In this document: positions 50-23,090 of the stretch, piece by piece
Layout: every line of letters starts with the position of its first letter
How positions within the stretch are numbered: the first letter of the stretch is position 1
UHGV virus genome: UHGV-0106931
Length of the DNA: 38,673 bases
Source of the DNA: a virus
Reading direction: 5' to 3' (one strand)
Made by a program: the position numbers and the translations under genes
The notes under the pieces: generated by a model
Told to the model about the DNA's origin: nothing
What the model saw: the letters and a program-made list of their open reading frames with translations, nothing else
The model's database searches: none

Positions 50-586
50 ATGCGTCGCGCTAACGATCCGCAACGGCGAGAAAAAATTATCCAGGCCACG
101 CTGGAGGCGGTGAAACTTTATGGAATACATGCTGTTACGCACCGCAAAATTGCTACCCTTGCCGGGGTACCGTTGGGGTCGATGACCTACTATTTTTCAG
201 GAATTGATGAGTTGTTGCTGGAGGCGTTCAGCAGTTTTACTGAGATCATGTCCCGGCAATATCAGGCATTTTTTAGCGATGTTAGTGATGCTCCGGGCGC
301 ATGCCAGGCTATCACCAATATGATTTACAGCTCACAGGTTGCAACGCCGGATAACATGGAGCTGATGTACCAGCTCTACGCGCTGGCTAGCCGAAAACCG
401 CTATTAAAAACGGTAATGCAAAACTGGATGCAGCGCAGTCAGCAAACGCTCGAACAATGGTTTGAACCCGGAACCGCTCGCGCGCTTGATGCGTTTATTG
501 AGGGGATGACGCTGCATTTTGTCACCGACCGTAAGCCGCTATCACGCGAGGAGATTTTGAGGATGGTTGAGAGGGTTGCAGGGTAG
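50..586 (+). CDS. rcdA: TetR-family transcriptional regulator RcdA (YbjK)
   Basis: Translation [33 protein letters not shown]... matches E. coli RcdA as recalled; ATG at 50 chosen over the TTG at 20 in the ORF track. Confidence 0.88.
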
Positions 587-736: not shown

Positions 737-1006
737 TTACCTTAGACGCCATGGGCTCCTATCTTCAATCTGTTCGACTAACCCCTCCTCTTCTAGTTCA
801 CGCAATAGTGCAACAACCCAATATTGTTGGTTCGAACTTGTGGCTTTCCGTTTTTCTCCCCAATCGAGGCCGCTTAGACGAAATACCTCAGCTTGCTTAA
901 CGCCGTTGCCGTTTTTTTGGGCATCTGGGTGAGTTTTAAGTACGGATAAAGCCAATTCTTTGGCTCTGTTGCGCAATTCCGCTCCCTGATGCTGAAACTT
1001 ATTCAT
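737..1006 (-). CDS. Hypothetical small protein (89 aa) between attL and int; possible winged-helix-like C-terminus
   Basis: Intact ORF with ATG and upstream GGAG; no family recognised by eye; position inside the att arm is unusual for P2/186. Confidence 0.4.
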   Translation of the reverse strand: MNKFQHQGAELRNRAKELALSVLKTHPDAQKNGNGVKQAEVFRLSGLDWGEKRKATSSNQQYWVVALLRELEEEGLVEQIEDRSPWRLR

Positions 1007-1064: not shown

Positions 1065-2096
1065 TCAAAAACTTGCTATTGATGTTGGTAGTGTTGCCAG
1101 CGGATTAAACCGTAATGCAGTTTCCAGGTGATCCGGTGCCAGATGTGCGTAACGCATAGTCATTTTTATGTCGTGATGTCCGAGGATTTTTTGCAAAGCA
1201 AGGATATTTCCACCCGACATCATAAAATGCGCCGCAAACGTATGGCGCAGAACGTGTGTCAGTTGACCGCGAGGGAGCACGATAGACGTTTTTTCCATCA
1301 CAGATAAAAATTGAAAATAGCAGTCTGTGAAGAAATTGAACCCATCAAGCGCCACGATCTCTTCGTAAAGTTCTTTACTGATAGGGATGCTTCTGTTTTT
1401 CTTCCCCTTCGTTCTTACAAAGGTAATTCGGTATTTGGTCACCTGTGAGCGGGTAATATTTACAGCTTCACGCCAGCGTGCGCCTGTGCTTAAGCATATC
1501 TTAACTACCAGTGCCAGAATTGGGTCCTGACGTTTGCAATCAGCCAGCAATTCAACAATCTGCTCATGGGTAAGCCATGCCATCTCTTTTTCTGCGATGG
1601 TGAATTTTCGCATGTTCTCCAGTGGGTTCGGATACGACCATTCGCCCAGGCGGGATAGTTCGCTAAAAACACTACTTAGATAGCTTTGCTCCAGATTAAT
1701 GGTGATCGGGCTTGCTCCTTTCTTCCATTTCTCGCTGAAGTAGATCTCTCCTGTCAGGCGTTTATCTCGATAGTGGGCAAACATTTTAGAGGTGAGATCT
1801 GTTGCAAGGGGATTGCCCAGAGCGTCAACCATCAACAGCAATTTGTCATAGACATGCTGTCCAGCGGTTAGAGATTTACCATGTAGTTTGAACCATAGCT
1901 CAACCACGTCTTTCAGTGTTCGACGATCCACTGATTCACCAAGCCAGGGCTTTGCTTCGGTTTCTTCCATCGTGTGGCGCTCAAAAGCCAGAGCTTCGCC
2001 TTTGGTGGCGAATTGTTTACGCACACGACGCCCACTTCGGCCGGCGGGGTAACATTCGCAAAGCCATTTCCCTGTGGTGAGTTTTCGTACTGTCAT
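1065..2096 (-). CDS. int: Tyrosine site-specific integrase (P2/186 Int family)
   Basis: C-terminal catalytic signature (ARWREA, HVLRHTFA, MTMRYAHL); start placed at MTVRKL (2096) by analogy with 186 Int, alternative ATG at 2111. Confidence 0.9.
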   Translation of the reverse strand: MTVRKLTTGKWLCECYPAGRSGRRVRKQFATKGEALAFERHTMEETEAKPWLGESVDRRTLKDVVELWFKLHGKSLTAGQHVYDKLLLMVDALGNPLATDLTSKMFAHYRDKRLTGEIYFSEKWKKGASPITINLEQSYLSSVFSELSRLGEWSYPNPLENMRKFTIAEKEMAWLTHEQIVELLADCKRQDPILALVVKICLSTGARWREAVNITRSQVTKYRITFVRTKGKKNRSIPISKELYEEIVALDGFNFFTDCYFQFLSVMEKTSIVLPRGQLTHVLRHTFAAHFMMSGGNILALQKILGHHDIKMTMRYAHLAPDHLETALRFNPLATLPTSIASF

Positions 2097-2177
2097 AAAA
2101 AATGCCCTCATATCAGAGGGCTAAATTTAACTGTATGTTTGACCAGTGGTCAATGTAGGATTTGGACTTACCATACA

Positions 2178-3629
2178 TCAATCAAACGTTGTGCTAAGTT
2201 CAATTAAATCGAAATATTGATGAATTTTTAGTTCATTATTTTCAAGTCTGCGTAATGCATATCCCATCTTTAGAAAATTAACTAACGTTTCATCAGCAGT
2301 TAAATATCCCTCTAACCATTGCTCTGGTGTGTCTAAGTGGTGTGAACCAGGAGGAGCCACTTTTATCATAGTTAAAATATTCCATGCTGTTTCTATATAA
2401 TTAATAATTCCTGTGGAAATTTCTTTTTTATTATATGAATTATTATGATAGTTACCTTTATGTTGTAAATATTTTACTTGTGTAGCGGCATAGGATAAGT
2501 CAAACGATAGTTTTATCGAGGCATTGGAGACGGCAGTTGTAATTTTTTCTTTTGATTTTATCCTTGAATAAAGGTCATAATCTTTGAAGTTTAATGTAGA
2601 TAGCATTAACATTAAGTTAGGGTCAAAACTCTTCTCCGTTGTAATTAATATATCGATTAATCTTTCGTATATTTTTATAGCATCTCTCAGGCTCATACTC
2701 ATCGATTGCAAGATCGATGAGCAGTTACTTATAAATGAATTTATATCTGGAGACATTGGCATGAGTTTTTTTCTTAAACTATCAAAATCAGAAATAATAT
2801 TTTCACCAGTTTTTGTTAACAATAAATCTTGAAATTGTGGAGATGGTAACAGAAAACGACGGTCGAAAAATCTACTCAAATAATGGCTGGCGGAAAAGTC
2901 TCGGCCATATAGGACCTTTATCGAGTGCTGCAGTTGTTGCGTATCAGTAGATATTATAAATACAACACCAGGAATATTGAATATGTGTTTTGTGATTTCC
3001 AGAAGGCTGATTGAAAAATCAGGTCTGCACCTGTCAAGCTCATCAATTATTATAAATAATGGTAATTTTTTATTTATACCATCCTTTTGTTTTATATGTT
3101 TAATCCATTCGCCAATTCCGAGTTTAATTGTTTGCACTTTTTTATTTTTTTCCGCATGTATATCTAAAAGTTTTTCAGAAAGACTTTTTGATAAATTAGA
3201 AATGGAGTCTATACCTAAATGTGTCTTAACTAAGCTTTCAATTATAATTGGTGTTGCTGTTTTTAAAAGAGGGCCTATATTTTCGATGGTTTTATTAATT
3301 ACTTTTGTGAATTTATCTGATTGCTCTGTTAATTGTTCTTTAATTGAACTAAATACTGTTAATAATGGATCGTCTGAGAAATCATCTTTCCATGCGTCTA
3401 TATAAACTGTAGGGTGACTGTTTGATATAGTTTTAGCAAATCGCTTTGTAAAGTAAGTTTTACCAGCACCCCATTGTGCATTAATATTTATGACTAGGTT
3501 TGAATTTTCACCTCTGGAAGAACAAACCTCATAAAGATATTTAGCATATTTACCCCTATCTAAGGTATCTGAAGGTAAGTACTCTCCCAAATACTCATCT
3601 TCGTTATTCCATTGCCATTCAATACTCAT
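2178..3629 (-). CDS. KAP-family P-loop NTPase (483 aa), moron between cI and int
   Basis: Walker A NAQWGAGKT and Walker B-like IIIDELDRCRPDF, characteristic of KAP NTPases; markedly AT-rich versus flanking phage genes; start ATG abuts the cI stop (TAAATG). Confidence 0.72.
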   Translation of the reverse strand: MSIEWQWNNEDEYLGEYLPSDTLDRGKYAKYLYEVCSSRGENSNLVININAQWGAGKTYFTKRFAKTISNSHPTVYIDAWKDDFSDDPLLTVFSSIKEQLTEQSDKFTKVINKTIENIGPLLKTATPIIIESLVKTHLGIDSISNLSKSLSEKLLDIHAEKNKKVQTIKLGIGEWIKHIKQKDGINKKLPLFIIIDELDRCRPDFSISLLEITKHIFNIPGVVFIISTDTQQLQHSIKVLYGRDFSASHYLSRFFDRRFLLPSPQFQDLLLTKTGENIISDFDSLRKKLMPMSPDINSFISNCSSILQSMSMSLRDAIKIYERLIDILITTEKSFDPNLMLMLSTLNFKDYDLYSRIKSKEKITTAVSNASIKLSFDLSYAATQVKYLQHKGNYHNNSYNKKEISTGIINYIETAWNILTMIKVAPPGSHHLDTPEQWLEGYLTADETLVNFLKMGYALRRLENNELKIHQYFDLIELSTTFD

Positions 3630-4193
3630 TTATACCTCACTTATAACGCAATGTACTTTTGCAACAGGTTTTATATCATTAATGCCGCATTTAAATGAAA
3701 ATCCCTCTCCAGTAACCATGACTTTTTTAACTGGAATTAGATTGATTTTTTTTATGCTTAATTTTCCTTCTATTTCCACAAGCCACTGACCGTCAGAAAT
3801 AATGACATCTTCTCGATCACAAATATAAATCTGTTGATTAGCTAGTATAGCTAATGGAGATTTTGTTTTTCTCGGTAGTAAGATGGGATCAATCTTGTGT
3901 GTTCCAAGTTCGACGCTGTCTCCATTCTTTAATTCGTGCGTTTCAACATCAATTAACGTTGTTTCAGTATTCTTAATTAACTCACCTTTACCCGAGACGA
4001 GCCAATCAATTGAAATGCCGGTTTCCATCGCACATTGAAGAACCCAATCTGCGGGAAAAATATCACGCATGTAACGTGTCGCCATAGTGCTCTTTGATAC
4101 ACCTAAGTGGTCGCAGAGGGCCTGCCGGGTTGTGAACCCATATGCCTCTACCAAACGTTCAATTACTTTCTTACCACCGCTACTGAAATCCAT
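3630..4193 (-). CDS. cI: CI-type immunity repressor (186 CI-like, 187 aa)
   Basis: N-terminal HTH (TTRQALCDHLGVSKSTMATRYMRD); transcribed divergently from the apl/cII operon; GGAGG RBS. Confidence 0.75.
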   Translation of the reverse strand: MDFSSGGKKVIERLVEAYGFTTRQALCDHLGVSKSTMATRYMRDIFPADWVLQCAMETGISIDWLVSGKGELIKNTETTLIDVETHELKNGDSVELGTHKIDPILLPRKTKSPLAILANQQIYICDREDVIISDGQWLVEIEGKLSIKKINLIPVKKVMVTGEGFSFKCGINDIKPVAKVHCVISEV

Positions 4194-6455: not shown

Positions 6456-7309
6456 GCACCATCCTGAAATGGGCGGGAAATAAAACCGCCATTATGTCCG
6501 AACTGAAAAAACATCTTCCTGCTGGCCCGCGACTGGTTGAACCTTTCGCGGGTTCCTGTGCTGTGATGATGGAAACGGATTATCCCAGCTATCTGGTTGC
6601 GGATATTAATCCTGATTTAATCAACCTCTATAAAAAGGTTGCCGCTGATTGTGAATCGTTTATATCTCGCGCCAGAGTTTTATTTGAGATCGCAAACAGG
6701 GAGGTGGCTTATTACAACATAAGGCAGGAGTTTAATTACTCAACTGAAATTACTGATTTCATGAAAGCGGTATATTTCCTGTATCTCAATCGTCACGGTT
6801 ACCGTGGTTTATGTCGCTATAACAAGAGCGGGCATTTCAACATTCCCTACGGTAATTATAAAAATCCGTATTTCCCTGAAAAAGAAATTCGCGCTTTTGC
6901 AGAAAAAGCCCAGCGAGCAACGTTTATCTGCGCCAGCTTTGATGAAACGCTGGCGATGTTGAAGGCGGGGGATGTGGTGTATTGCGATCCGCCTTATGAC
7001 GGTACGTTTTCCGGCTATCACACTGATGGTTTCACTGAAGATGACCAGTATCACCTGGCATCTGTTCTTGAACATCGATCATCAGAAGGACATCCGGTCA
7101 TTGTTTCTAACAGTGACACATCCCTGATCCGTTCGCTGTATCGCAATTTTACTCACCACTACATCAAGGCAAAACGCAGCATCGGCGTAGCAGCTGGTGA
7201 GAGTAAATCTGCAACAGAAATCATCGCTGTTTCCGGGCCACGCTGCTGGGTGGAATTTGATCCTTCGCGTGGCGTGGATAGTTCTGCTGTATACGAGGTG
7301 CGTGTATGA
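6452..7309 (+). CDS. dam: DNA adenine methyltransferase (Dam family)
   Basis: N-terminal KWAGNK and catalytic DPPY motifs; ATGA overlap with upstream gene. Confidence 0.85.
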
Positions 7310-9720
7310 GTCATGACGATATGAGCAACTCTAGCGGCTTTAACGAGGCCGCTACAGCATTTTCATGGAACGGCCCGAAAAAGGCCATTAACCCTTATCT
7401 GGACCCGGCGGAAGTTGCGCCGGAGTCTGCACTTTTAAACCTGATCACTCTGTACGCTGCCGATAATGAGCAGGAACAGCTGCGCCGCGATGCACTGAGT
7501 GAGCAGGTCTGGGAGCGTTATTTCTTTAATGAATCTCGTGATCCTGTCCAGCGCGAAATGGAGCAGGATAAGCTCATTAGCCGGGCAAAGCTGGCGCATG
7601 AACAGCAGCGTTTTAACCCGGACATGGTCATTCTGGCGGACGTCAGCGCCCAGCCCACCCATATTAGCAAGCCGCTGATGCAACGTATCGAATACTTCAG
7701 CAGCCTGGGCAGGCCAAAGGCTTATTCCCGCTATTTGCGTGAGACGATTAAGCCATGTCTGGAGCGACTGGATTGTGTACGTGACAGTCAGCTGTCTGCT
7801 TCTTTCCGTTTTATGGCAAGCCATCAAGGGCTGGAGGGCCTGCTGATCCTGCCTGAAATGAGTCAGGACCAGGTGAAACGCCTGTCCACCCTGGTAGCTG
7901 CGCATATGAGCATGTGCCTTGATGCAGCTTGTGGCGATTTGTATGCCACCGATGACGTTAAGCCAGAAGAAATCCGCAAGACATGGGAAAAGGTGGCGGC
8001 GGAAACCCTGCGTCTGGATGTCATCCCACCTGCGTTTGAGCAACTCCGTCGGAAAAGAAACCGCCGTAAACCCGTACCCTATGAACTCATTCCGGGTTCG
8101 CTGGCGCGTATGTTGTGCGCCGACTGGTGGTATCGGAAATTATGGAAGATGCGTTGCGAATGGCGGGAAGAGCAGTTGCGTGCTGTCTGCCTGGTCAGCA
8201 AAAAAGCATCTCCCTATGTCAGCTATGAAGCCGTGATGCATAAACGTGAGCAGCGCCGTAAGTCGCTGGAGTTTTTCCGTTCTCATGAACTGGTGAACGA
8301 AGACGGCGACACGCTGGACATGGAGGATGTGGTAAACGCCAGCAGCAGCAACCCTGCGCATCGCCGCAATGAGATGATGGCCTGTGTTAAAGGTCTGGAG
8401 CTTATCGCGGAAATGCGCGGTGACTGCGCCGTTTTCTACACTATCACCTGTCCGTCACGTTTCCATTCCACGCTCAACAACGGCAGACCCAACCCGACCT
8501 GGACAAATGCGACGGTAAGACAAAGCAGCGATTATCTGGTCGGCATGTTTGCTGCATTTCGTAAGGCAATGCACAAAACCGGGTTGCGCTGGTATGGCGT
8601 GCGGGTGGCTGAGCCGCACCATGACGGTACTGTGCACTGGCATCTCATGTGCTTCATGCGTAAAAAAGACCGCCGCGCCATCACTGCATTACTGCGTAAG
8701 TTTGCCATCCGTGTAGACCGCGAGGAGCTGGGCAACAACACGGGGCCACGCTTTAAGTCTGAGCTGATTAACCCGCGCAAAGGAACACCGACAAGCTACA
8801 TCGCGAAATACATCAGTAAGAACATTGACGGGCGTGGTCTGGCCGGCGAGATCAGCAAGGAAACGGGTAAATCCCTGCGTGATAACGCCGAATACGTTAA
8901 TGCCTGGGCGTCTCTGCATCGTGTTCAGCAGTTCCGCTTCTTTGGTATTCCGGGACGTCAGGCTTACCGTGAACTTCGCTTGCTGGCTGGTCAGGCGGCA
9001 AGGCAACAGGGTGACAAAAAAGCAGGTGCGCCGATACTGGATGACCCGCGCCTTGATGCCATCCTGGCTGCTGCTGATGCTGGTTGTTTTGCCACCTACA
9101 TCATGAAGCAGGGCGGCGTACTGGTTCCCCGTAAATATCACCTTATCAGAACCGCTTATGAAATCAACGAAGAGCCGACCGCCTATGGCGATCACGGCAT
9201 TCGTATTTATGGCATCTGGTCACCCATTGCAGAGGGCAAGATCTGCACTCATGCAGTGAAGTGGAAAATGGTTCGTAAGGCCGTTGACGTTCAGGAGGCG
9301 GAAGCCGACCAGGGCGCTTGCGCCCCTTGGACTCGTGGCAATAACTGTCCCCTTGCTGAAAATTTGAACCAACATGAGAAAGATGAATCAGCAGATGGGG
9401 ATACCAGAACGGACATTACCTGCATGGATGACAAGGAATTGCACGATTACCTGCACAGTATGAGCAAAAAAGAGCGCCGGGAACTGGCAGCAAGATTGCG
9501 CCTGGTTAAACCGAAACGGCGTAAAGACTACAAACAGCGAATTACAGAGTATCAGCGTCAGCAGCTCGTCTATGAACTGAAGTCCAGAGGATTTGATGGC
9601 AGCGAGAAAGAGGTCGATTTGCTCCTTTGCGGTGGCAGTATTCCGTCAGGAGCAGGCCTGCGTATCTTCTATCGGAACCAGCGTTTGCAGGAAGATGATA
9701 AGTGGCGGAACCTGTATTAA
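7306..9720 (+). CDS. A: Replication initiation endonuclease gpA (rolling-circle, P2/186 A family)
   Basis: 804 aa protein following the early operon in the P2 gene A position; HxH-containing region (TVHWHLMCF) consistent with a HUH-type nickase. Confidence 0.82.
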
Positions 9721-9812: not shown

Positions 9813-9832
9813 TACTGTAAATATAAACAGTG
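9813..9832. promoter_or_regulatory. LexA (SOS) box TACTGTAAATATAAACAGTG overlapping a sigma70-like promoter
   Basis: Perfect CTGT-N8-ACAG with AT-rich spacer; TTTACA (9790-9795) and TATACT (9811-9816) hexamers; lies 42 bp upstream of the ATG at 9874. Confidence 0.6.
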
Positions 9833-9873: not shown

Positions 9874-10062
9874 ATGCAGGACTATTTTTTGGAGTCTTTG
9901 AAGCTCCAGCGCATTGATTTTTTTCTTAAGCTTGTAGCGGCTAGTGAGTGTAGTGATGAAGAGAAGGGGCTAGCTCTGCAGTGGGTTTCTGAATTGACTG
10001 ATGAGTTGATGGCGAAAATTCGAAGCCATGAATACAGTAGGTCGATGGATGTAATCAGTTGA
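9874..10062 (+). CDS. Small SOS-controlled protein (62 aa); candidate Tum-like antirepressor
   Basis: AGGAGG RBS 5 nt before ATG; downstream of the LexA box; position matches 186 tum (between A and cos). The longer ORF from 9772 would contain the operator. Confidence 0.4.
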   Translation: MQDYFLESLKLQRIDFFLKLVAASECSDEEKGLALQWVSELTDELMAKIRSHEYSRSMDVIS

Positions 10063-11980: not shown

Positions 11981-12676
11981 ATGGCTTGCAGTAGGGGAAA
12001 AGCTTCTCCAAACGCTAATACAGTTAGACGGCTTTTTGCCAGCTCAGGTGGCTTTTGCCAAAATCCACAATGCTTGCAACCTTTGTTTGTTGATGCTGGC
12101 GACAAAAATATAACAATTGGAGAACTTGCTCACATTTTTAGTGCCATTGATAATGGACCTAGAACCAATGCTGATCTAACTGATGAGCAGAGAGGTCATT
12201 TTGACAACATTATTCTTCTATGTGCTAATTGCCATACGACAATTGATAAGGCAGAGGAACATTTTACTGATGAAATTATCCGTTCTTGGAAAAACGGCCA
12301 TATTGATAAAATAAATGCAACCTTTGGTGTTAAAACATATGACAATCGAGAATCTGTTAGACAGGAGTTAGAAAAATACTTCAGAGAAAACAATACCATT
12401 TTTGTAACATATGGACCAACCCAAGAGAACAGCGTTGACCCTGAAAATCCAAATGCAGAAGTATGGTTAAGAAAAGTACAATCTCATATCTTACCCAACA
12501 ATAGAAAAGTACAGCGACTGGTTGAACAAAACTATCACCTCATGAGTGAAGATGAGAAGAATGTTTTTTCAAAGCTTTGTGTTCATATAGATGACTTTGA
12601 ATCAAAACATTTGGGCTTAACCGATGCTAATGGTAGTAGGTTTCCAGAAGCTGCATCTGAACTATTTATAGGATGA
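11981..12676 (+). CDS. HNH-motif nuclease-like protein (231 aa), cassette gene 1
   Basis: C-x2-C (CQNPQC), conserved His (ELAHIF), Asn, and CANCH arranged as in HNH endonucleases; AT-rich; stop overlaps next start. Confidence 0.65.
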   Translation: MACSRGKASPNANTVRRLFASSGGFCQNPQCLQPLFVDAGDKNITIGELAHIFSAIDNGPRTNADLTDEQRGHFDNIILLCANCHTTIDKAEEHFTDEIIRSWKNGHIDKINATFGVKTYDNRESVRQELEKYFRENNTIFVTYGPTQENSVDPENPNAEVWLRKVQSHILPNNRKVQRLVEQNYHLMSEDEKNVFSKLCVHIDDFESKHLGLTDANGSRFPEAASELFIG

Positions 12677-13332
12677 ATCCAATGAGCATAAATGCGAGTG
12701 AAGGCTATATTTCATGGATGGCAGGAAAATTACAAGAAAATAAATGTGTCGAAAATATAGAGGTGATAGGTGATGGTACTTTAGTGATTAATACTACACA
12801 GGGTGACACCTATTTGATCGGGGCAATCAATACTGGCCGGATAACATGTCCTGAGATAAATGAATACCTAGACAATAAAAAAATTGATTTTCTATCAGTC
12901 AAGGGAGGTGTTGAATTTATCTCTGGTGATGCAATGAGATTACTAGAACAAAAGAAAATAGGAGTGGGTTCATTTGGGCATATTGCATCTTCTTTAAGAG
13001 CTAATAATCCGCTTGAGCATCTTGATAAAGAGCATTTGTTTATAAATAGAGTGTTCAATCAACATTCACATGTAAGCTCTGTAGAGCGAGAAACCAACAA
13101 AAAATATAGACTTAAAAGACGTGGCTTGGCGGACTTAGTTATTATCGCTGCGAATGATTATGATATGACAGCGGGTTCTGTAAGAGATGCGATAGGGTTG
13201 CATGGCAATTGTGATGTTGTTTTTTCCTCCAATCCTAATGGACGATTGACGACTCAGGCAAAAGAGGCTGCTCAAAGTATCGGGGTGGAGCTTTACAAGT
13301 TGGGTGATTTATTACGAAGAATTTCACGGTAG
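12673..13332 (+). CDS. Hypothetical protein (219 aa), cassette gene 2
   Basis: ATGA-coupled to gene 1; no domain confidently recognised; a weak Rx6H (RANNPLEH) is noted only as a possibility. Confidence 0.6.
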   Translation: MNPMSINASEGYISWMAGKLQENKCVENIEVIGDGTLVINTTQGDTYLIGAINTGRITCPEINEYLDNKKIDFLSVKGGVEFISGDAMRLLEQKKIGVGSFGHIASSLRANNPLEHLDKEHLFINRVFNQHSHVSSVERETNKKYRLKRRGLADLVIIAANDYDMTAGSVRDAIGLHGNCDVVFSSNPNGRLTTQAKEAAQSIGVELYKLGDLLRRISR

Positions 13333-13701: not shown

Positions 13702-14730
13702 TTACAAGGAGTAATCTTGGAATTTTATTACGTCATCATGTAGCCAATTGTTCACCTCTCTAATTCGTTGTTGAAGAGGCTTTAATTCATTACGTACAAA
13801 AACCGTGGATGCCTTCTCCACATCCCCAAACCCGCCAACATTATTCGGCATGATACCCATCATTTGTGGAGGCACGCGGTGTGCCGCCATCATGTCATCC
13901 CGGCTCACGTTCTTGATGTTCAGAAATTCATCCTTTGCCGCGACTTCTGACAACGGGATAATCTGAAGACCATCCTTTTTGCCGTTAGGTGAGTACATAA
14001 ACAGGTTGCGGAAGTTGCCTGGACCTTTGGCGCTTTTCATTGCGTTGCGGAGGTTGTTCACATCCTCCTGGTTCTGCGCAGCATCGGTCATGTACATGAT
14101 GAAGCCAGCATGACTGCCGTTAATGTAATACTTTCGGCGGAACAGCGTGGCGGACTCGTTGAGCAGGGCTGACGGAATGGCAGAAAGATAACCGGGCAGG
14201 CCGTAGATCTCCTGGTTGATGTCCGGTTCCATCAGATGAAAGATGCTGCCTTTCGTGAACTGATACGGCTGGGTTGTCATACCGTATTGCACAAACCAGT
14301 AGGTATCCAGGTCTAATCCGCGTCGGGTGTATTTTGCCAGCGCAGGTTCAAGGGCGATCACTTCACCGAAGCGGTTCGTGCGTTTCTCCAGATAGGCGTT
14401 GCCAAATACCAGATAGTCCTGCACAAAACGCGAAAAAGCCTGCTGGCTGAGCAGAGGATGAGGGATATAGGTACTGGTCAGAATGTTGCACTTTACTGCA
14501 ATCGGGGAACTGTGATGCACGGCGGCGCGGAAGGTGCGAGCCAGACCGTCGAAACTCACTGGCGGCTCATACCAGCGATCTGTCTGTACGCATTGCACAT
14601 AGTCCAGCAGTTCGCGGCGGTCAAGTACAGGAACGGGATCACCGAAGCTGAATGCTTCGGCTGAAGTCTGGCTTTTATGCTGGATCTGATTCGTCGCCGC
14701 AGTGCGGTTTTTCTTACTCTTTCCCATCAA
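13702..14730 (-). CDS. Q: Portal protein gpQ
   Basis: 342 aa in P2 Q position, overlapping the terminase gene; sequence consistent with P2 Q as recalled. Confidence 0.88.
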   Translation of the reverse strand: MMGKSKKNRTAATNQIQHKSQTSAEAFSFGDPVPVLDRRELLDYVQCVQTDRWYEPPVSFDGLARTFRAAVHHSSPIAVKCNILTSTYIPHPLLSQQAFSRFVQDYLVFGNAYLEKRTNRFGEVIALEPALAKYTRRGLDLDTYWFVQYGMTTQPYQFTKGSIFHLMEPDINQEIYGLPGYLSAIPSALLNESATLFRRKYYINGSHAGFIMYMTDAAQNQEDVNNLRNAMKSAKGPGNFRNLFMYSPNGKKDGLQIIPLSEVAAKDEFLNIKNVSRDDMMAAHRVPPQMMGIMPNNVGGFGDVEKASTVFVRNELKPLQQRIREVNNWLHDDVIKFQDYSL

Positions 14731-21052: not shown

Positions 21053-21477
21053 ACCGGTTGCTGCTGGTTGTGCTGGCGTTATTACTGGCGGCGCTGGGCT
21101 GGCAGACGTGGCGGCTGGCTGATGCCAGCCAGACCATCAGCACGCAGGCAGATGAGCTGCAGAGCAAAAGCCAGGCACTGGCAAAGAGCAACAGCCAGCT
21201 TATCAGCCTGTCCATTCTGACAGAAACCAACAACCGGGAGCAGGCGCGACTCTATGCCGACGCAGAACAGACCAGCGCACTACTGAGACAACGACAACAC
21301 CGGATTGAGGAACTGAAACGTGAGAACGAGGATTTACGCCGCTGGGCTGATACTCCTTTGCCTGCTGACATTATCCGGCTGCGGGAACGCCCCACACTCA
21401 CCGGAGGTGCAGCTTACCGTCAGTGGTTGTCCGCGAGTGACGCCGTGTCGGCTGGGGCAGGCAGCGCCGCGCACTAA
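21049..21477 (+). CDS. lysB: Rz-like i-spanin (LysB-like)
   Basis: N-terminal TM helix then coiled-coil periplasmic domain. Confidence 0.6.
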   Translation: MNRLLLVVLALLLAALGWQTWRLADASQTISTQADELQSKSQALAKSNSQLISLSILTETNNREQARLYADAEQTSALLRQRQHRIEELKRENEDLRRWADTPLPADIIRLRERPTLTGGAAYRQWLSASDAVSAGAGSAAH

Positions 21478-21610
21478 CGGTGACCTGAACGCGTTGCTGG
21501 ATGAAACGGAGGCCGCCTGGGCGGTCTGTGCAGACAAAGTGGACATGATTATTGCGTGTCAGGAGCGAAACAGTGAACAAACCACAATCCCTGCGCCACG
21601 CCCTCAATAA
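21320..21610 (+). CDS. lysC: Rz1-like o-spanin lipoprotein (LysC-like), overlapping lysB in another frame
   Basis: Lipobox LLTLSGC; overlapping frame arrangement typical of Rz/Rz1. Confidence 0.5.
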   Translation: MRTRIYAAGLILLCLLTLSGCGNAPHSPEVQLTVSGCPRVTPCRLGQAAPRTNGDLNALLDETEAAWAVCADKVDMIIACQERNSEQTTIPAPRPQ

Positions 21611-22004
21611 AGCGGTGCCTTATGTCCGCAATAACCCGGACAAACTGCATCTGTTTGTGGATAACGGTTCGCTGGTTGCCACGGGGGCCAGCTCCATGTC
21701 ATGGGAGTACCGCTACACCCTGAACGTGGTGATAGAGGATTTCAGCGGCGACCAGAATCTGCTGATGGCCCCGGTTTTACTGTGGCTTCGGGATAACCAG
21801 CCCGATGCCATCAATAACCCGGCGTTACGGGAAAAGCTATTCACCTTTGATGTGGATATTTTGCGCAACGATGTCTGTGATATCAGCCTTAACCTGCAAC
21901 TGACGGAACGTGTGCTGGTCAGCACTGACGGCAGTGTGTCGAGCGTTGAAGCTGTAGCAGAACCCGATGAACCTGAAGAAATGTGGACGGTGAAACGTGG
22001 CTGA
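21573..22004 (+). CDS. R: Tail completion protein gpR
   Basis: P2 R-like (KPQSLRHAL...FVDNGS); GTG start with AGGAG RBS, TTG at 21552 also possible. Confidence 0.75.
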   Translation: MNKPQSLRHALNKAVPYVRNNPDKLHLFVDNGSLVATGASSMSWEYRYTLNVVIEDFSGDQNLLMAPVLLWLRDNQPDAINNPALREKLFTFDVDILRNDVCDISLNLQLTERVLVSTDGSVSSVEAVAEPDEPEEMWTVKRG

Positions 22005-22443
22005 ACTGCAGAAGGTGGACGACTGGCTGAGTGCCTTGCTGGCGAATCTGGAACCAGCCACGAGAAGCCGCATGATGCGCCAGCTGGCGCAGGAACTGCG
22101 CCGGACACAGCAGCAGAATATCAGGATGCAGCGCAATCCAGATGGCAGCAGTTATGAACCGCGCAGGGTAACAGCACGCAGCAAGAAGGGGCGCATCAAA
22201 CGTCAGATGTTTGCAAAGCTGCGCACCACAAAATACCTGAAAACTGCCGCCAGCGCCGACTCTGCCAGCGTACAGTTTGAAGGCAAGGTGCAGCGTATTG
22301 CCCGTGTTCACCATTACGGCCTGCGTGATCGCGTCAGTCGCAAAGGACCGGAGGTCCGTTACGCAGAGCGCCGCCTGCTGGGTGTAAATGATGATGTTGA
22401 GGCAATGACCCGCGACATGATTCTGCAATGGCTGGCGGGGTGA
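21997..22443 (+). CDS. S: Tail completion protein gpS
   Basis: P2 S position and size; GTG start overlapping R stop. Confidence 0.72.
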   Translation: MAELQKVDDWLSALLANLEPATRSRMMRQLAQELRRTQQQNIRMQRNPDGSSYEPRRVTARSKKGRIKRQMFAKLRTTKYLKTAASADSASVQFEGKVQRIARVHHYGLRDRVSRKGPEVRYAERRLLGVNDDVEAMTRDMILQWLAG

Positions 22444-22447
22444 TCTT

Positions 22448-22465
22448 TGTATCAGCACTGATACA
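22448..22465. promoter_or_regulatory. Ogr-type late promoter dyad TGT-N12-ACA upstream of V
   Basis: TGTATCAGCACTGATACA (itself palindromic) in the S-V gap. Confidence 0.55.
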
Positions 22466-22511
22466 AGTTGCAGCACTGCCGCCTTTCTTCCCCTGATGGC
22501 AACCTTTCCCT

Positions 22512-23090
22512 ATGAACGCACAATTAACCGAAATCATGCGCCTTATCACCAACCTGATCCGCACAGGGGTAGTCACCGAAGTGGACAGGGAAAACTGGCT
22601 TTGCCGGGTGAAAACGGGCGAGCTTGAAACCAACTGGATCAGCTGGCTGACGCTGCGTGCCGGGAATGCCCGCACATGGTGGCGACCATCGGAAGGTGAG
22701 CAGGTGGTGCTGCTGAGTCTGGGCGGCAATCTGGAAACCGCCTTTGCGTTACCCGCCATCTATTCGAATCAGTTCGCGCCACCGTCGACGTCGGCGGACG
22801 CCTGCGTGACAGAACATCCTGACGGTGGCTGGTTTGAATACGAACCCGCCACCGGGCGCTGGTATGTCAGGGGCATCAAATCAATGGTCATTGAGGCCGC
22901 TGACAACATCACCATGAAAACCAGTGAGTTTGTACTGGAGGCTGACCACACGCGCATTAACAGCGAAGTGGTGATCAATGGTGGCGTTACCCAGGGCGGC
23001 GGAGCGATGAGTTCTAACGGGATCGTGGTTGATGCGCATCAGCATACTGGCGTCCTGAAAGGCGGCGATACAACCGGAGGCCCGGTATGA
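22512..23090 (+). CDS. V: Baseplate spike/assembly protein gpV
   Basis: P2 V-like, gene order. Confidence 0.85.
   Translation: MNAQLTEIMRLITNLIRTGVVTEVDRENWLCRVKTGELETNWISWLTLRAGNARTWWRPSEGEQVVLLSLGGNLETAFALPAIYSNQFAPPSTSADACVTEHPDGGWFEYEPATGRWYVRGIKSMVIEAADNITMKTSEFVLEADHTRINSEVVINGGVTQGGGAMSSNGIVVDAHQHTGVLKGGDTTGGPV

Follow-up and report, generated by a model that had tools for sequence, protein, structure and literature searches.

A KAP-family P-loop NTPase gene as candidate defence cargo between cI and int of a 186-like prophage

The virus genome UHGV-0106931, a stretch of 38,673 nucleotides (nt) that is referred to here as the window, carries on its minus strand a gene for a KAP-family P-loop NTPase of 483 amino acids (aa), located between the genes for a CI repressor and an integrase (Table 1). 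With 99.9% identity, the window corresponds to a prophage that Escherichia coli JNE151685 carries beside rcdA (positions 20-586), and for which RefSeq lists the gene product as 'KAP family P-loop NTPase fold protein' (WP_160187117.1). The open reading frame (ORF), its Walker A motif NAQWGAGKT and a Walker B motif of the DELDR type had been described in an earlier note, and all are present as described there. The gene, which the note called strongly AT-rich, has a GC content of 31.1% (24% at third codon positions), lower than that of the window as a whole (50.6%) and that of int (46.7%). In agreement with the note, cI, the KAP gene and int lie on the same strand, and the ATG of the KAP gene directly follows the TAA of cI (TAAATG; junction GAGGTATAAATG), with the Shine-Dalgarno sequence GAGG lying within the 3' end of cI. 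The start of int is found 66-81 nt downstream of the KAP stop codon. In phage 186 (U32222), no gene separates cI (22433-23011) from int (21423-22433), and the two share a single base, in accordance with the layout given in the note.

Table 1. Positions of the genes, motifs and regulatory features around the KAP gene in the window.
Feature	Position	Strand	Basis and remarks
89-aa ORF, WP_001032044.1, hypothetical	737..1006	minus	second small variable slot, from int to prophage end/rcdA
Tyrosine integrase gene int, P2/186 type	1065..2111 (RefSeq start 2096)	minus	Pfam Int_N and Phage_integrase
Conserved non-coding block, cargo stop to int ATG	2097..2177	minus	alignment of 45 unique upstream sequences with different cargos
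GC hairpin GCCCTC-TGATAT-GAGGGC with T-run	2104..2121	minus	terminator-like match just before the int start
Promoter-like site TTGACC-18-TAAATT	2153..2124	minus	promoter scan
LexA-box-like palindrome, here CTGG-N8-ACAG	2131..2146	.	one-mismatch pattern match; ~50 nt upstream of the int ATG
Exchangeable AT-rich cassette: cI C-terminal domain (codons ~71-187) and KAP gene	2163..3981	minus	homology breakpoints, CI identities, GC profile
KAP-family P-loop NTPase gene, 483 aa, ATG start	2178..3629	minus	Pfam, PADLOC and PHROG matches
C-terminal region of KAP protein, aa 262-483	2181..2846	minus	helical lid-like part, family-specific alpha/beta module, conserved tail YFDLIELSTTFD
NTPase core, aa 25-264	2838..3557	minus	Pfam extent
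Walker B IIIDELDRCRPDF, aa 193-205	3015..3053	minus	sequence
Helical insertion between Walker A and Walker B, aa ~88-180		minus	AlphaFold2 model
Walker A / P-loop NAQWGAGKT, aa 50-58	3456..3482	minus	sequence and alignment of 40 homologues
186-type CI repressor gene cI, 187 aa	3630..4193	minus	Pfam Phage_CI_repr (3.5e-30) and Phage_CI_C (7.3e-24)

The assignment to the KAP family holds in a profile search: the protein matches Pfam KAP_NTPase (PF07693) at 1.2e-37, with 130.2 bits against a cutoff of 20 and aa 25-264 aligned to positions 1-228 of the 293 in the profile. The top match in any library is the PADLOC model PDC-S20 (PDLC04959, 5e-84), which aligns aa 20-411 of 483 to profile positions 18-413 of 464, and the protein falls into PHROG 8614 (1.4e-64), a family without assigned function. 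Homologues that align over the full length, with identities of 36-70%, were found in Escherichia, Enterobacter, Citrobacter, Leclercia, Kosakonia, Serratia and others. A comparison of the gene with three orthologues yielded pN values of 0.19-0.30 and pS values of 0.75-0.81; as the synonymous sites are saturated while the protein is kept, the gene is under purifying selection. The Pfam match, the full-length homologues in many Enterobacterales and the contrast between pN and pS confirm, at the level of sequence, that the ORF is a genuine gene and not a chance ORF.

The P-loop departs from the canonical GxxxxGK[ST] motif at the first glycine, which is replaced by an alanine. Across the alignment of 40 homologues, W53, G54, G56 and K57 of Walker A are invariant, and T58 is kept in at least 90%. 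Invariance was also observed for the Walker B stretch I195-P203 within IIIDELDRCRP, with its DELDRCRP motif and D196/E197, for T228-D229-T230, which is a candidate for sensor 1, for R253, and for R315, which sits in the helical lid-like part of the C-terminal region. The highest Kyte-Doolittle mean over 19 residues is 1.39, under the usual threshold of ~1.6, and hence the protein contains no transmembrane segment, in line with the note, which had seen no transmembrane insertion. By these features, it can be classed as a soluble KAP ATPase of the AAA+/STAND-like kind, the catalytic set of which is intact.

In the AlphaFold2 model of the protein (predicted local distance difference test, pLDDT, 80.5), the AAA+-like core is accompanied by a four-helix insertion, by a helical lid and, at the C-terminus, by an alpha/beta module. 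The insertion is formed by helices 88-103, 105-123, 125-137 and 143-180, with a pLDDT below 50 at residues 123-137. Transmembrane helices inside the NTPase domain are typical of the first-described prokaryotic KAP members, but they are not universal. They are not found in the 483-aa protein, and in the model a soluble helical insertion stands at the place where classical KAP proteins carry them. No recognisable effector fold was found in the C-terminal region. In a Foldseek search against the PDB, the best match was RdrA of the RADAR system (1.3e-7), followed by ORC/Cdc6 and then by BrxC. A profile built from the family alignment gave no matches to PDB sequences at E<=1.

Among catalogued systems, PDC-S20 resembles the KAP protein as a soluble, single-gene candidate that falls into the same length class, with a profile match over most of the length; the last ~70 residues of the KAP protein lie outside this match, and PDC-S20 is a computational candidate only. 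The comparison with PifA, the F-plasmid protein that excludes T7, had been drawn in the earlier note and can be upheld for the NTPase domain, not beyond it. PifA is also encoded by a single gene on a mobile element, but its C-terminal two thirds have no counterpart in the KAP protein; the PADLOC PifA model matches at 6e-14 through the NTPase core only (aa 28-269, model positions 24-261 of 720), and membership was rejected as there is no full-length similarity. Moreover, PifA is membrane-associated, whereas the 483-aa protein has no transmembrane segment. The Qat system was rejected as well. The PADLOC QatA model matches the NTPase core only (1e-9), the NCBIfam QatA model gives 37.6 bits against a cutoff of 600, and the only neighbours of the gene are cI and int, with no qatB, qatC or qatD.

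With RdrA, the KAP protein shares an ORC/Cdc6-related AAA+ core, a helical bundle that is inserted after Walker A and before Walker B, and an orphan C-terminal lobe rich in alpha helices. In RdrA, a four-helix insertion at the equivalent place forms the crown of the heptamer, and the C-terminal lobe is an orphan helical one (PMC9994260). RdrA differs in its size of ~800-850 aa, in being heptameric and in working with the RdrB deaminase. As no match to the RdrA hidden Markov model (HMM) at E<=0.1 and no RdrB-like neighbour were found, membership in RADAR was rejected, and the likeness is one of fold only.

The earlier note had considered the gene as inserted between cI and int. The position is correct; however, this is not a simple insertion, as the exchanged cassette includes the C-terminal domain of the repressor. 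Nucleotide homology to prophages with other cargos ends at ~3982, which is within cI where the helix-turn-helix (HTH) domain is completed, and at ~2162 on the int side. The boundary of the hotspot is therefore located in the repressor gene itself, and swaps of the cargo usually bring a new CI C-terminal domain along. Across loci, the N-terminal domains of CI are 75-91% identical, and the C-terminal domains ~30%, or 70-72% where the cargo is a close KAP. Clustering of 76 loci gave a single N-terminal cluster (60% identity) and 15-16 C-terminal clusters. The C-terminal oligomerisation domain is AT-rich like the cargo, and its type mostly follows the cargo type. Exceptions exist: one C-terminal cluster occurs with seven different cargo arrangements, and in locus L070 a 70%-identical KAP is paired with a different CI C-terminal domain. 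We read the association of the cI C-terminus with the KAP gene as physical linkage in an exchangeable cassette, and not as obligate cooperation of the two proteins.

To describe the slot between cI and int, 80 loci were fetched from IMG/VR in a cI-based scan, and arrangements were tabulated for those with both cI and int matches. The loci were ranked by their likeness to the query cI set, and therefore the sample is biased toward KAP-linked repressors. The gap between cI and int spans 10-4534 bp, and of the 26 tabulated arrangements one is empty. Nearly all cargo ORFs are oriented like cI and int, and the slot has conserved flanks, namely the N-terminal domain of cI on one side and, on the other, the block that precedes int. 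The KAP gene is not fixed at this junction, being absent from 186 and replaced by unrelated genes in related prophages. The int gene has ~95% nucleotide identity to the integrase genes of Klebsiella phage 4LV2017 and Escherichia phage vB_EcoM-813R9, and yet prophages with such integrases at the same rcdA site contain different genes between cI and int. A different KAP of 443 aa is found in LD91-1, a 63-aa ORF in S56, and in vB_EcoM-813R9 a 558-aa DUF4041/T5orf172 protein that matches PD-Lambda-1 at 3e-120, while locus L078 carries homologues of PD-T4-2 A and B (2e-55 and 1.6e-8). The alternative cargos thus include homologues of two validated defence systems. Other cargos from IMG/VR comprise two PDC-S20 sub-families, PDC-M11A/B, a weak TIR-like match and several unannotated families, among them membrane proteins of ~320 aa with a coiled coil; the PDC-S20 sub-model PDLC04956 covers the KAPs of 443-449 aa that occupy the slot in other prophages. 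The 5' end of int together with its upstream block is present in 1109 of 5426 complete E. coli genomes (~20%). Eight evenly spread E. coli genomes contained the 63-aa ORF (five genomes), a PD-Lambda-1-like gene (two) or a 314-aa cargo without annotation (one). By this comparison of loci, the interval between cI and int is a dedicated, fast-turnover cargo slot, or hotspot, of the 186-like prophage.

Two further cargos of the slot are recurrent. The 63-aa protein, present at L006:4418-4609, in L097-L101 and in 33 IMG/VR loci (cluster c0), has a signal-peptide-like N-terminus and several cysteines (MLGKVFFVVLSCSLLL), and gave no Pfam and no PADLOC match. A family of ~312-338 aa (L089, L075, L064, L072, L056 and L050; clusters c3, c5, c6, c19, c35 and c40) has a long N-terminal coiled coil, hydrophobic segments in the C-terminal half and the conserved C-terminal motif RKDRQHAL.FG..FLQIYG; five of the six clusters, all but c19, had no PADLOC match, and the one cluster that was run against Pfam gave no match.

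Homologues of the KAP protein are widespread. An exhaustive HMMER scan returned 1677 representative clusters at E<=1e-30, most of which align over aa ~1-360, so that the last ~120 residues are the variable part. The order cI-KAP-int recurs with homologues of 36-66% identity in Leclercia, Kosakonia, Enterobacter and Serratia, and E. coli W contains a 69%-identical KAP, WFL_RS04625, between cI and int at the same rcdA site. Homologues are also found as lone genes in Vibrio cholerae and beside a small HTH gene in Ewingella, and no partner gene is kept across these contexts. The occurrence alone or in varied contexts argues for an autonomous, single-gene function. A search of IMG/VR with back-translated KAP peptides found no relatives. 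Among complete E. coli genomes, the 483-aa type is present in 12 and the 443-aa type in 15, i.e. ~27 of the ~1109 genomes with this int type carry a KAP.

The W-type cI-KAP prophage was also observed at this locus in NZ_CP026085.1 and NZ_CM135829.1, two assemblies of 4.83 Mb labelled 'DH5alpha'. Such a prophage is unexpected in a K-12 derivative and suggests that the strain was mislabelled in both cases.

Several reports bear on the slot and on the protein. In K139, the exclusion gene glo is located between cI and int in the lysogenic operon according to the record annotation, and a defence hotspot between cI and int has been described for K139-like Vibrio phages (Rousset 2022, PMC9122126). 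A third P2 hotspot adjoins CI (iLund4u preprint, 10.1101/2024.10.15.618418), and 8% of P2 defence systems were assigned to the interval between integrase and primase (10.64898/2026.02.27.708500). PD-Lambda-1 and PD-T4-2 originate from selections in which lytic T4 and lambda-vir were selected against (PMC9519451); KAP is not mentioned in Vassallo 2022. Like the KAP gene, glo, PD-Lambda-1 and PD-T4-2 are cargo between repressor and int of a P2-related phage and lie on the lysogenic strand. None of them is related to the KAP protein: glo codes for a periplasmic protein, PD-Lambda-1 for a DUF4041-T5orf172 protein, and PD-T4-2 is a DUF262-like system of two genes. They support the role of the slot and not a mechanism for KAP. 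The earlier note had seen in the place of the gene the classic position of a prophage exclusion gene, and this view is strengthened by the PD-Lambda-1 and PD-T4-2 homologues in the slot, by glo of K139, by the hotspot of Rousset 2022 and by the PDC-S20 match.

Closer to the protein itself, Reve is a single-gene KAP/AAA defence of E. coli that stems from P4 satellites and protects against Drexlerviridae, with an efficiency of plating down to ~1e-6 (10.64898/2026.02.27.708500). It resembles the KAP gene in being single-gene cargo of a P2/P4 hotspot with KAP_NTPase and AAA_22 annotations, and its top Foldseek match is the ORC ATPase module. EF_KAP from Enterococcus and KAP proteins from gut metagenomes defend in a Walker-B-dependent manner (PMC12632615); behind the NTPase domain of EF_KAP, as behind that of our protein, come a few hundred C-terminal residues that contain no known domain.

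The conserved block of ~80 nt that separates the cargo from int was found in every cargo-bearing locus (L001, L003, L005, L006 and ~70 IMG/VR loci). Its elements follow one another in the order inverted repeat (ATGTATG..CATACAT, just behind the cargo stop), -35-like TTGACC, palindrome, -10-like TTAAAT and GC hairpin with a T-run. Of the 45 unique upstream sequences, 29 have an exact copy of the LexA-box-like palindrome CTGT-N8-ACAG and 15, this window among them, a copy with a single mismatch; the palindrome is found at a fixed distance of -48 to -50 from the int ATG and is absent only where the gap between cI and int is 10 nt. As the LexA-type pattern with one mismatch is not enriched in this window alone (15 matches versus 14 expected), the case for a LexA box rests on the positional conservation across loci. 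The 3' arm of the hairpin holds the Shine-Dalgarno-like GAGG that precedes the int ATG. The hairpin is kept with one-sided changes from G-C to G-U and no compensatory double changes, and RNAalifold gave -2.28 kcal/mol for the block with no compensatory pairs; a proven RNA structure upstream of int is accordingly not claimed. The invariant ACTG..CAGT appears to fit a DNA site better than an RNA structure. We infer a LexA-controlled promoter for int, with attenuation of the cI-cargo transcript before int, so that int is probably not just the next cistron after the cargo.

A near-consensus LexA box (TACTGTAAATATAAACAGTG) was also observed at 9813-9832, before a small ORF on the plus strand (~9874-10062, ~62 aa, with a GGAGG ribosome binding site). 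This ORF lies just after replication gene A, which is the position of p95-tum in 186, and a BLAST search revealed no similarity to 186 Tum. A LexA box at the p95-tum position means that the phage plausibly has SOS circuitry, and the small ORF may possibly encode an SOS-controlled antirepressor.

We favour the interpretation that the KAP gene is accessory cargo, a 'moron', which most likely protects the lysogen against other phages, and assign to it a probability of roughly 60%. The cargo status is indicated by the absence from 186, the GC content of 31% and the varying content of the slot. As to how such protection could work, our confidence is much lower. KAP would be translated in every lysogen from the transcript of the lysogenic promoter pL; that it is constitutively co-transcribed with cI is deduced solely from the TAAATG junction and the lack of a strong terminator. 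The conserved hairpin and the separate LexA-box promoter-like block would uncouple int from the cargo transcript. The variable C-terminal module may then recognise a phage product, upon which the ATPase would switch or oligomerise, possibly into a ring with the helical insertion as its crown; these steps are proposed on the basis of the likeness to RdrA and ORC/Cdc6, the Walker-B dependence of EF_KAP, and PifA. As no nuclease, TIR, protease or transmembrane effector is present, the active form might act directly, by remodelling or sequestering a phage or host component or by burning NTP, and such direct action might halt the infection and perhaps abort the cell; these last steps are the weakest. 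Our preference is for a sensor-switch ATPase, which would oligomerise in response to a phage cue and would need no classical effector to act.

Several observations weigh against a defence role or against the likenesses on which it draws. The KAP protein has neither an effector domain nor a partner gene, and the blocking or killing step is for this reason a guess. The TM-scores to RdrA from Foldseek are low (~0.4), and the promoter scan found no consensus pL promoter. The most common cargo of the slot in E. coli is the 63-aa protein without a known role, and many other cargos have no defence annotation, which makes guilt by association imperfect. For PDC-S20, there is no mention and no reported phenotype in the searched literature. 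Of the validated KAP defence proteins, Reve is encoded by a satellite and not by a helper prophage, and was compared at the level of domain annotation, while EF_KAP, compared by description, is a Firmicutes protein with two transmembrane helices at its N-terminus that was found beside serine recombinases.

Other roles for the gene were considered. The ATPase might target other mobile elements, such as P4-like satellites, temperate phages of the same family or plasmids, and thereby benefit the prophage first. The relatives of this P2/186-type prophage are exploited by P4 satellites (PMC9122126), and a cassette that brings a new cI C-terminal domain along suggests competition between prophages; yet the validated cargos of the same slot were obtained in the selections against lytic T4 and lambda-vir (PMC9519451), and Reve, the only tested single-gene KAP of E. 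coli, blocks lytic Drexlerviridae, which makes this alternative unlikely. A role in the life cycle of the prophage, through CI oligomers, Int, excision or the switch between lysis and lysogeny, would explain the matching cI C-terminal domain, the type of which tracks the cargo type in most loci. The direct abutment of the KAP start codon on the cI stop and the ORC/Cdc6-like fold, ORC/Cdc6 proteins being DNA-binding, would be compatible with it. Against this stand phage 186 and many relatives, which have no KAP, the unrelated proteins, including known defence genes, at the same position, the exceptions to the pairing described above (seven arrangements with one C-terminal cluster, and L070), and the close homologues that occur as lone chromosomal genes without cI or int. 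We regard a life-cycle role as highly improbable.

It is also conceivable that the gene is a hitch-hiking or selfish passenger from which neither host nor phage profits, or has an unrelated cellular role, e.g. as a signalling or stress NTPase, and is kept only by its linkage to the immunity region. Its rarity (~12 of the ~1109 E. coli genomes with this int type), the missing effector domain and the lack of a reported phenotype would fit a passenger. The strong purifying selection across genera at saturated synonymous sites and the invariant catalytic residues in the 40 homologues speak against it, as do the independent recurrence of several KAP lineages in the slot and the size of the family, which numbers 1677 representative clusters and is part of a candidate set derived from defence islands; we therefore consider it improbable.

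KAP NTPases were reportedly proposed as conflict proteins twenty years ago. To our knowledge, only a handful have phenotypes (PifA, Tmn, QatA, EF_KAP and Reve), and none has a mechanism. By its matches and its location, the gene described here adds one more member to a family of defence candidates that had been catalogued before, and the hotspot in which it lies is of a familiar type. Specialists will not be surprised, as PADLOC lists the candidate already and the hotspot type has been reported. What is gained is a small, soluble and effector-less KAP family, of which at least two sublineages recur in one slot of a prophage type that is present in ~20% of E. coli genomes; with the 69%-identical copy in E. 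coli W, it offers a tractable system for studying how a bare KAP ATPase could stop a phage. The cassette boundary inside cI and the LexA-box-like block suggest how temperate phages may express cargo in lysogens and yet insulate int. There is a small chance that more is at hand, namely that soluble, effector-less KAP ATPases form a mechanistically new class of stand-alone defence, in which a ring-forming RdrA/ORC-like AAA+ machine neutralises a phage component directly, that the slot is a true cassette system swapping the repressor C-terminal domain and the defence gene together, and that int is driven separately by an SOS (LexA) promoter. In that case, a single module would tie together the defence repertoire, the type of repressor oligomer and the induction circuitry.

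Apart from the slot between cI and int, two other sites were noted in the prophage. The 89-aa ORF between int and the prophage end gave no Pfam, PADLOC or PHROG match and is not similar to orf69 of 186. It occupies a variable mini-slot between int and rcdA, which elsewhere in E. coli is empty or contains a 110-aa hypothetical protein or a Panacea-domain protein with a partner. A second AT-rich island (~36% GC) is found on the plus strand at 11981-13332, with gene A (7306-9720) on one side and the portal gene (13702-14730) on the other; this is the position of the classical P2 old/tin hotspot. The adjacent ORF at 12673-13332 had no matches, and the ORF at 11981-12676 matches PADLOC PDC-M68A (2.3e-29) and models of HNH-endonuclease effectors. 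The prophage thus probably carries a second candidate defence locus at this site.

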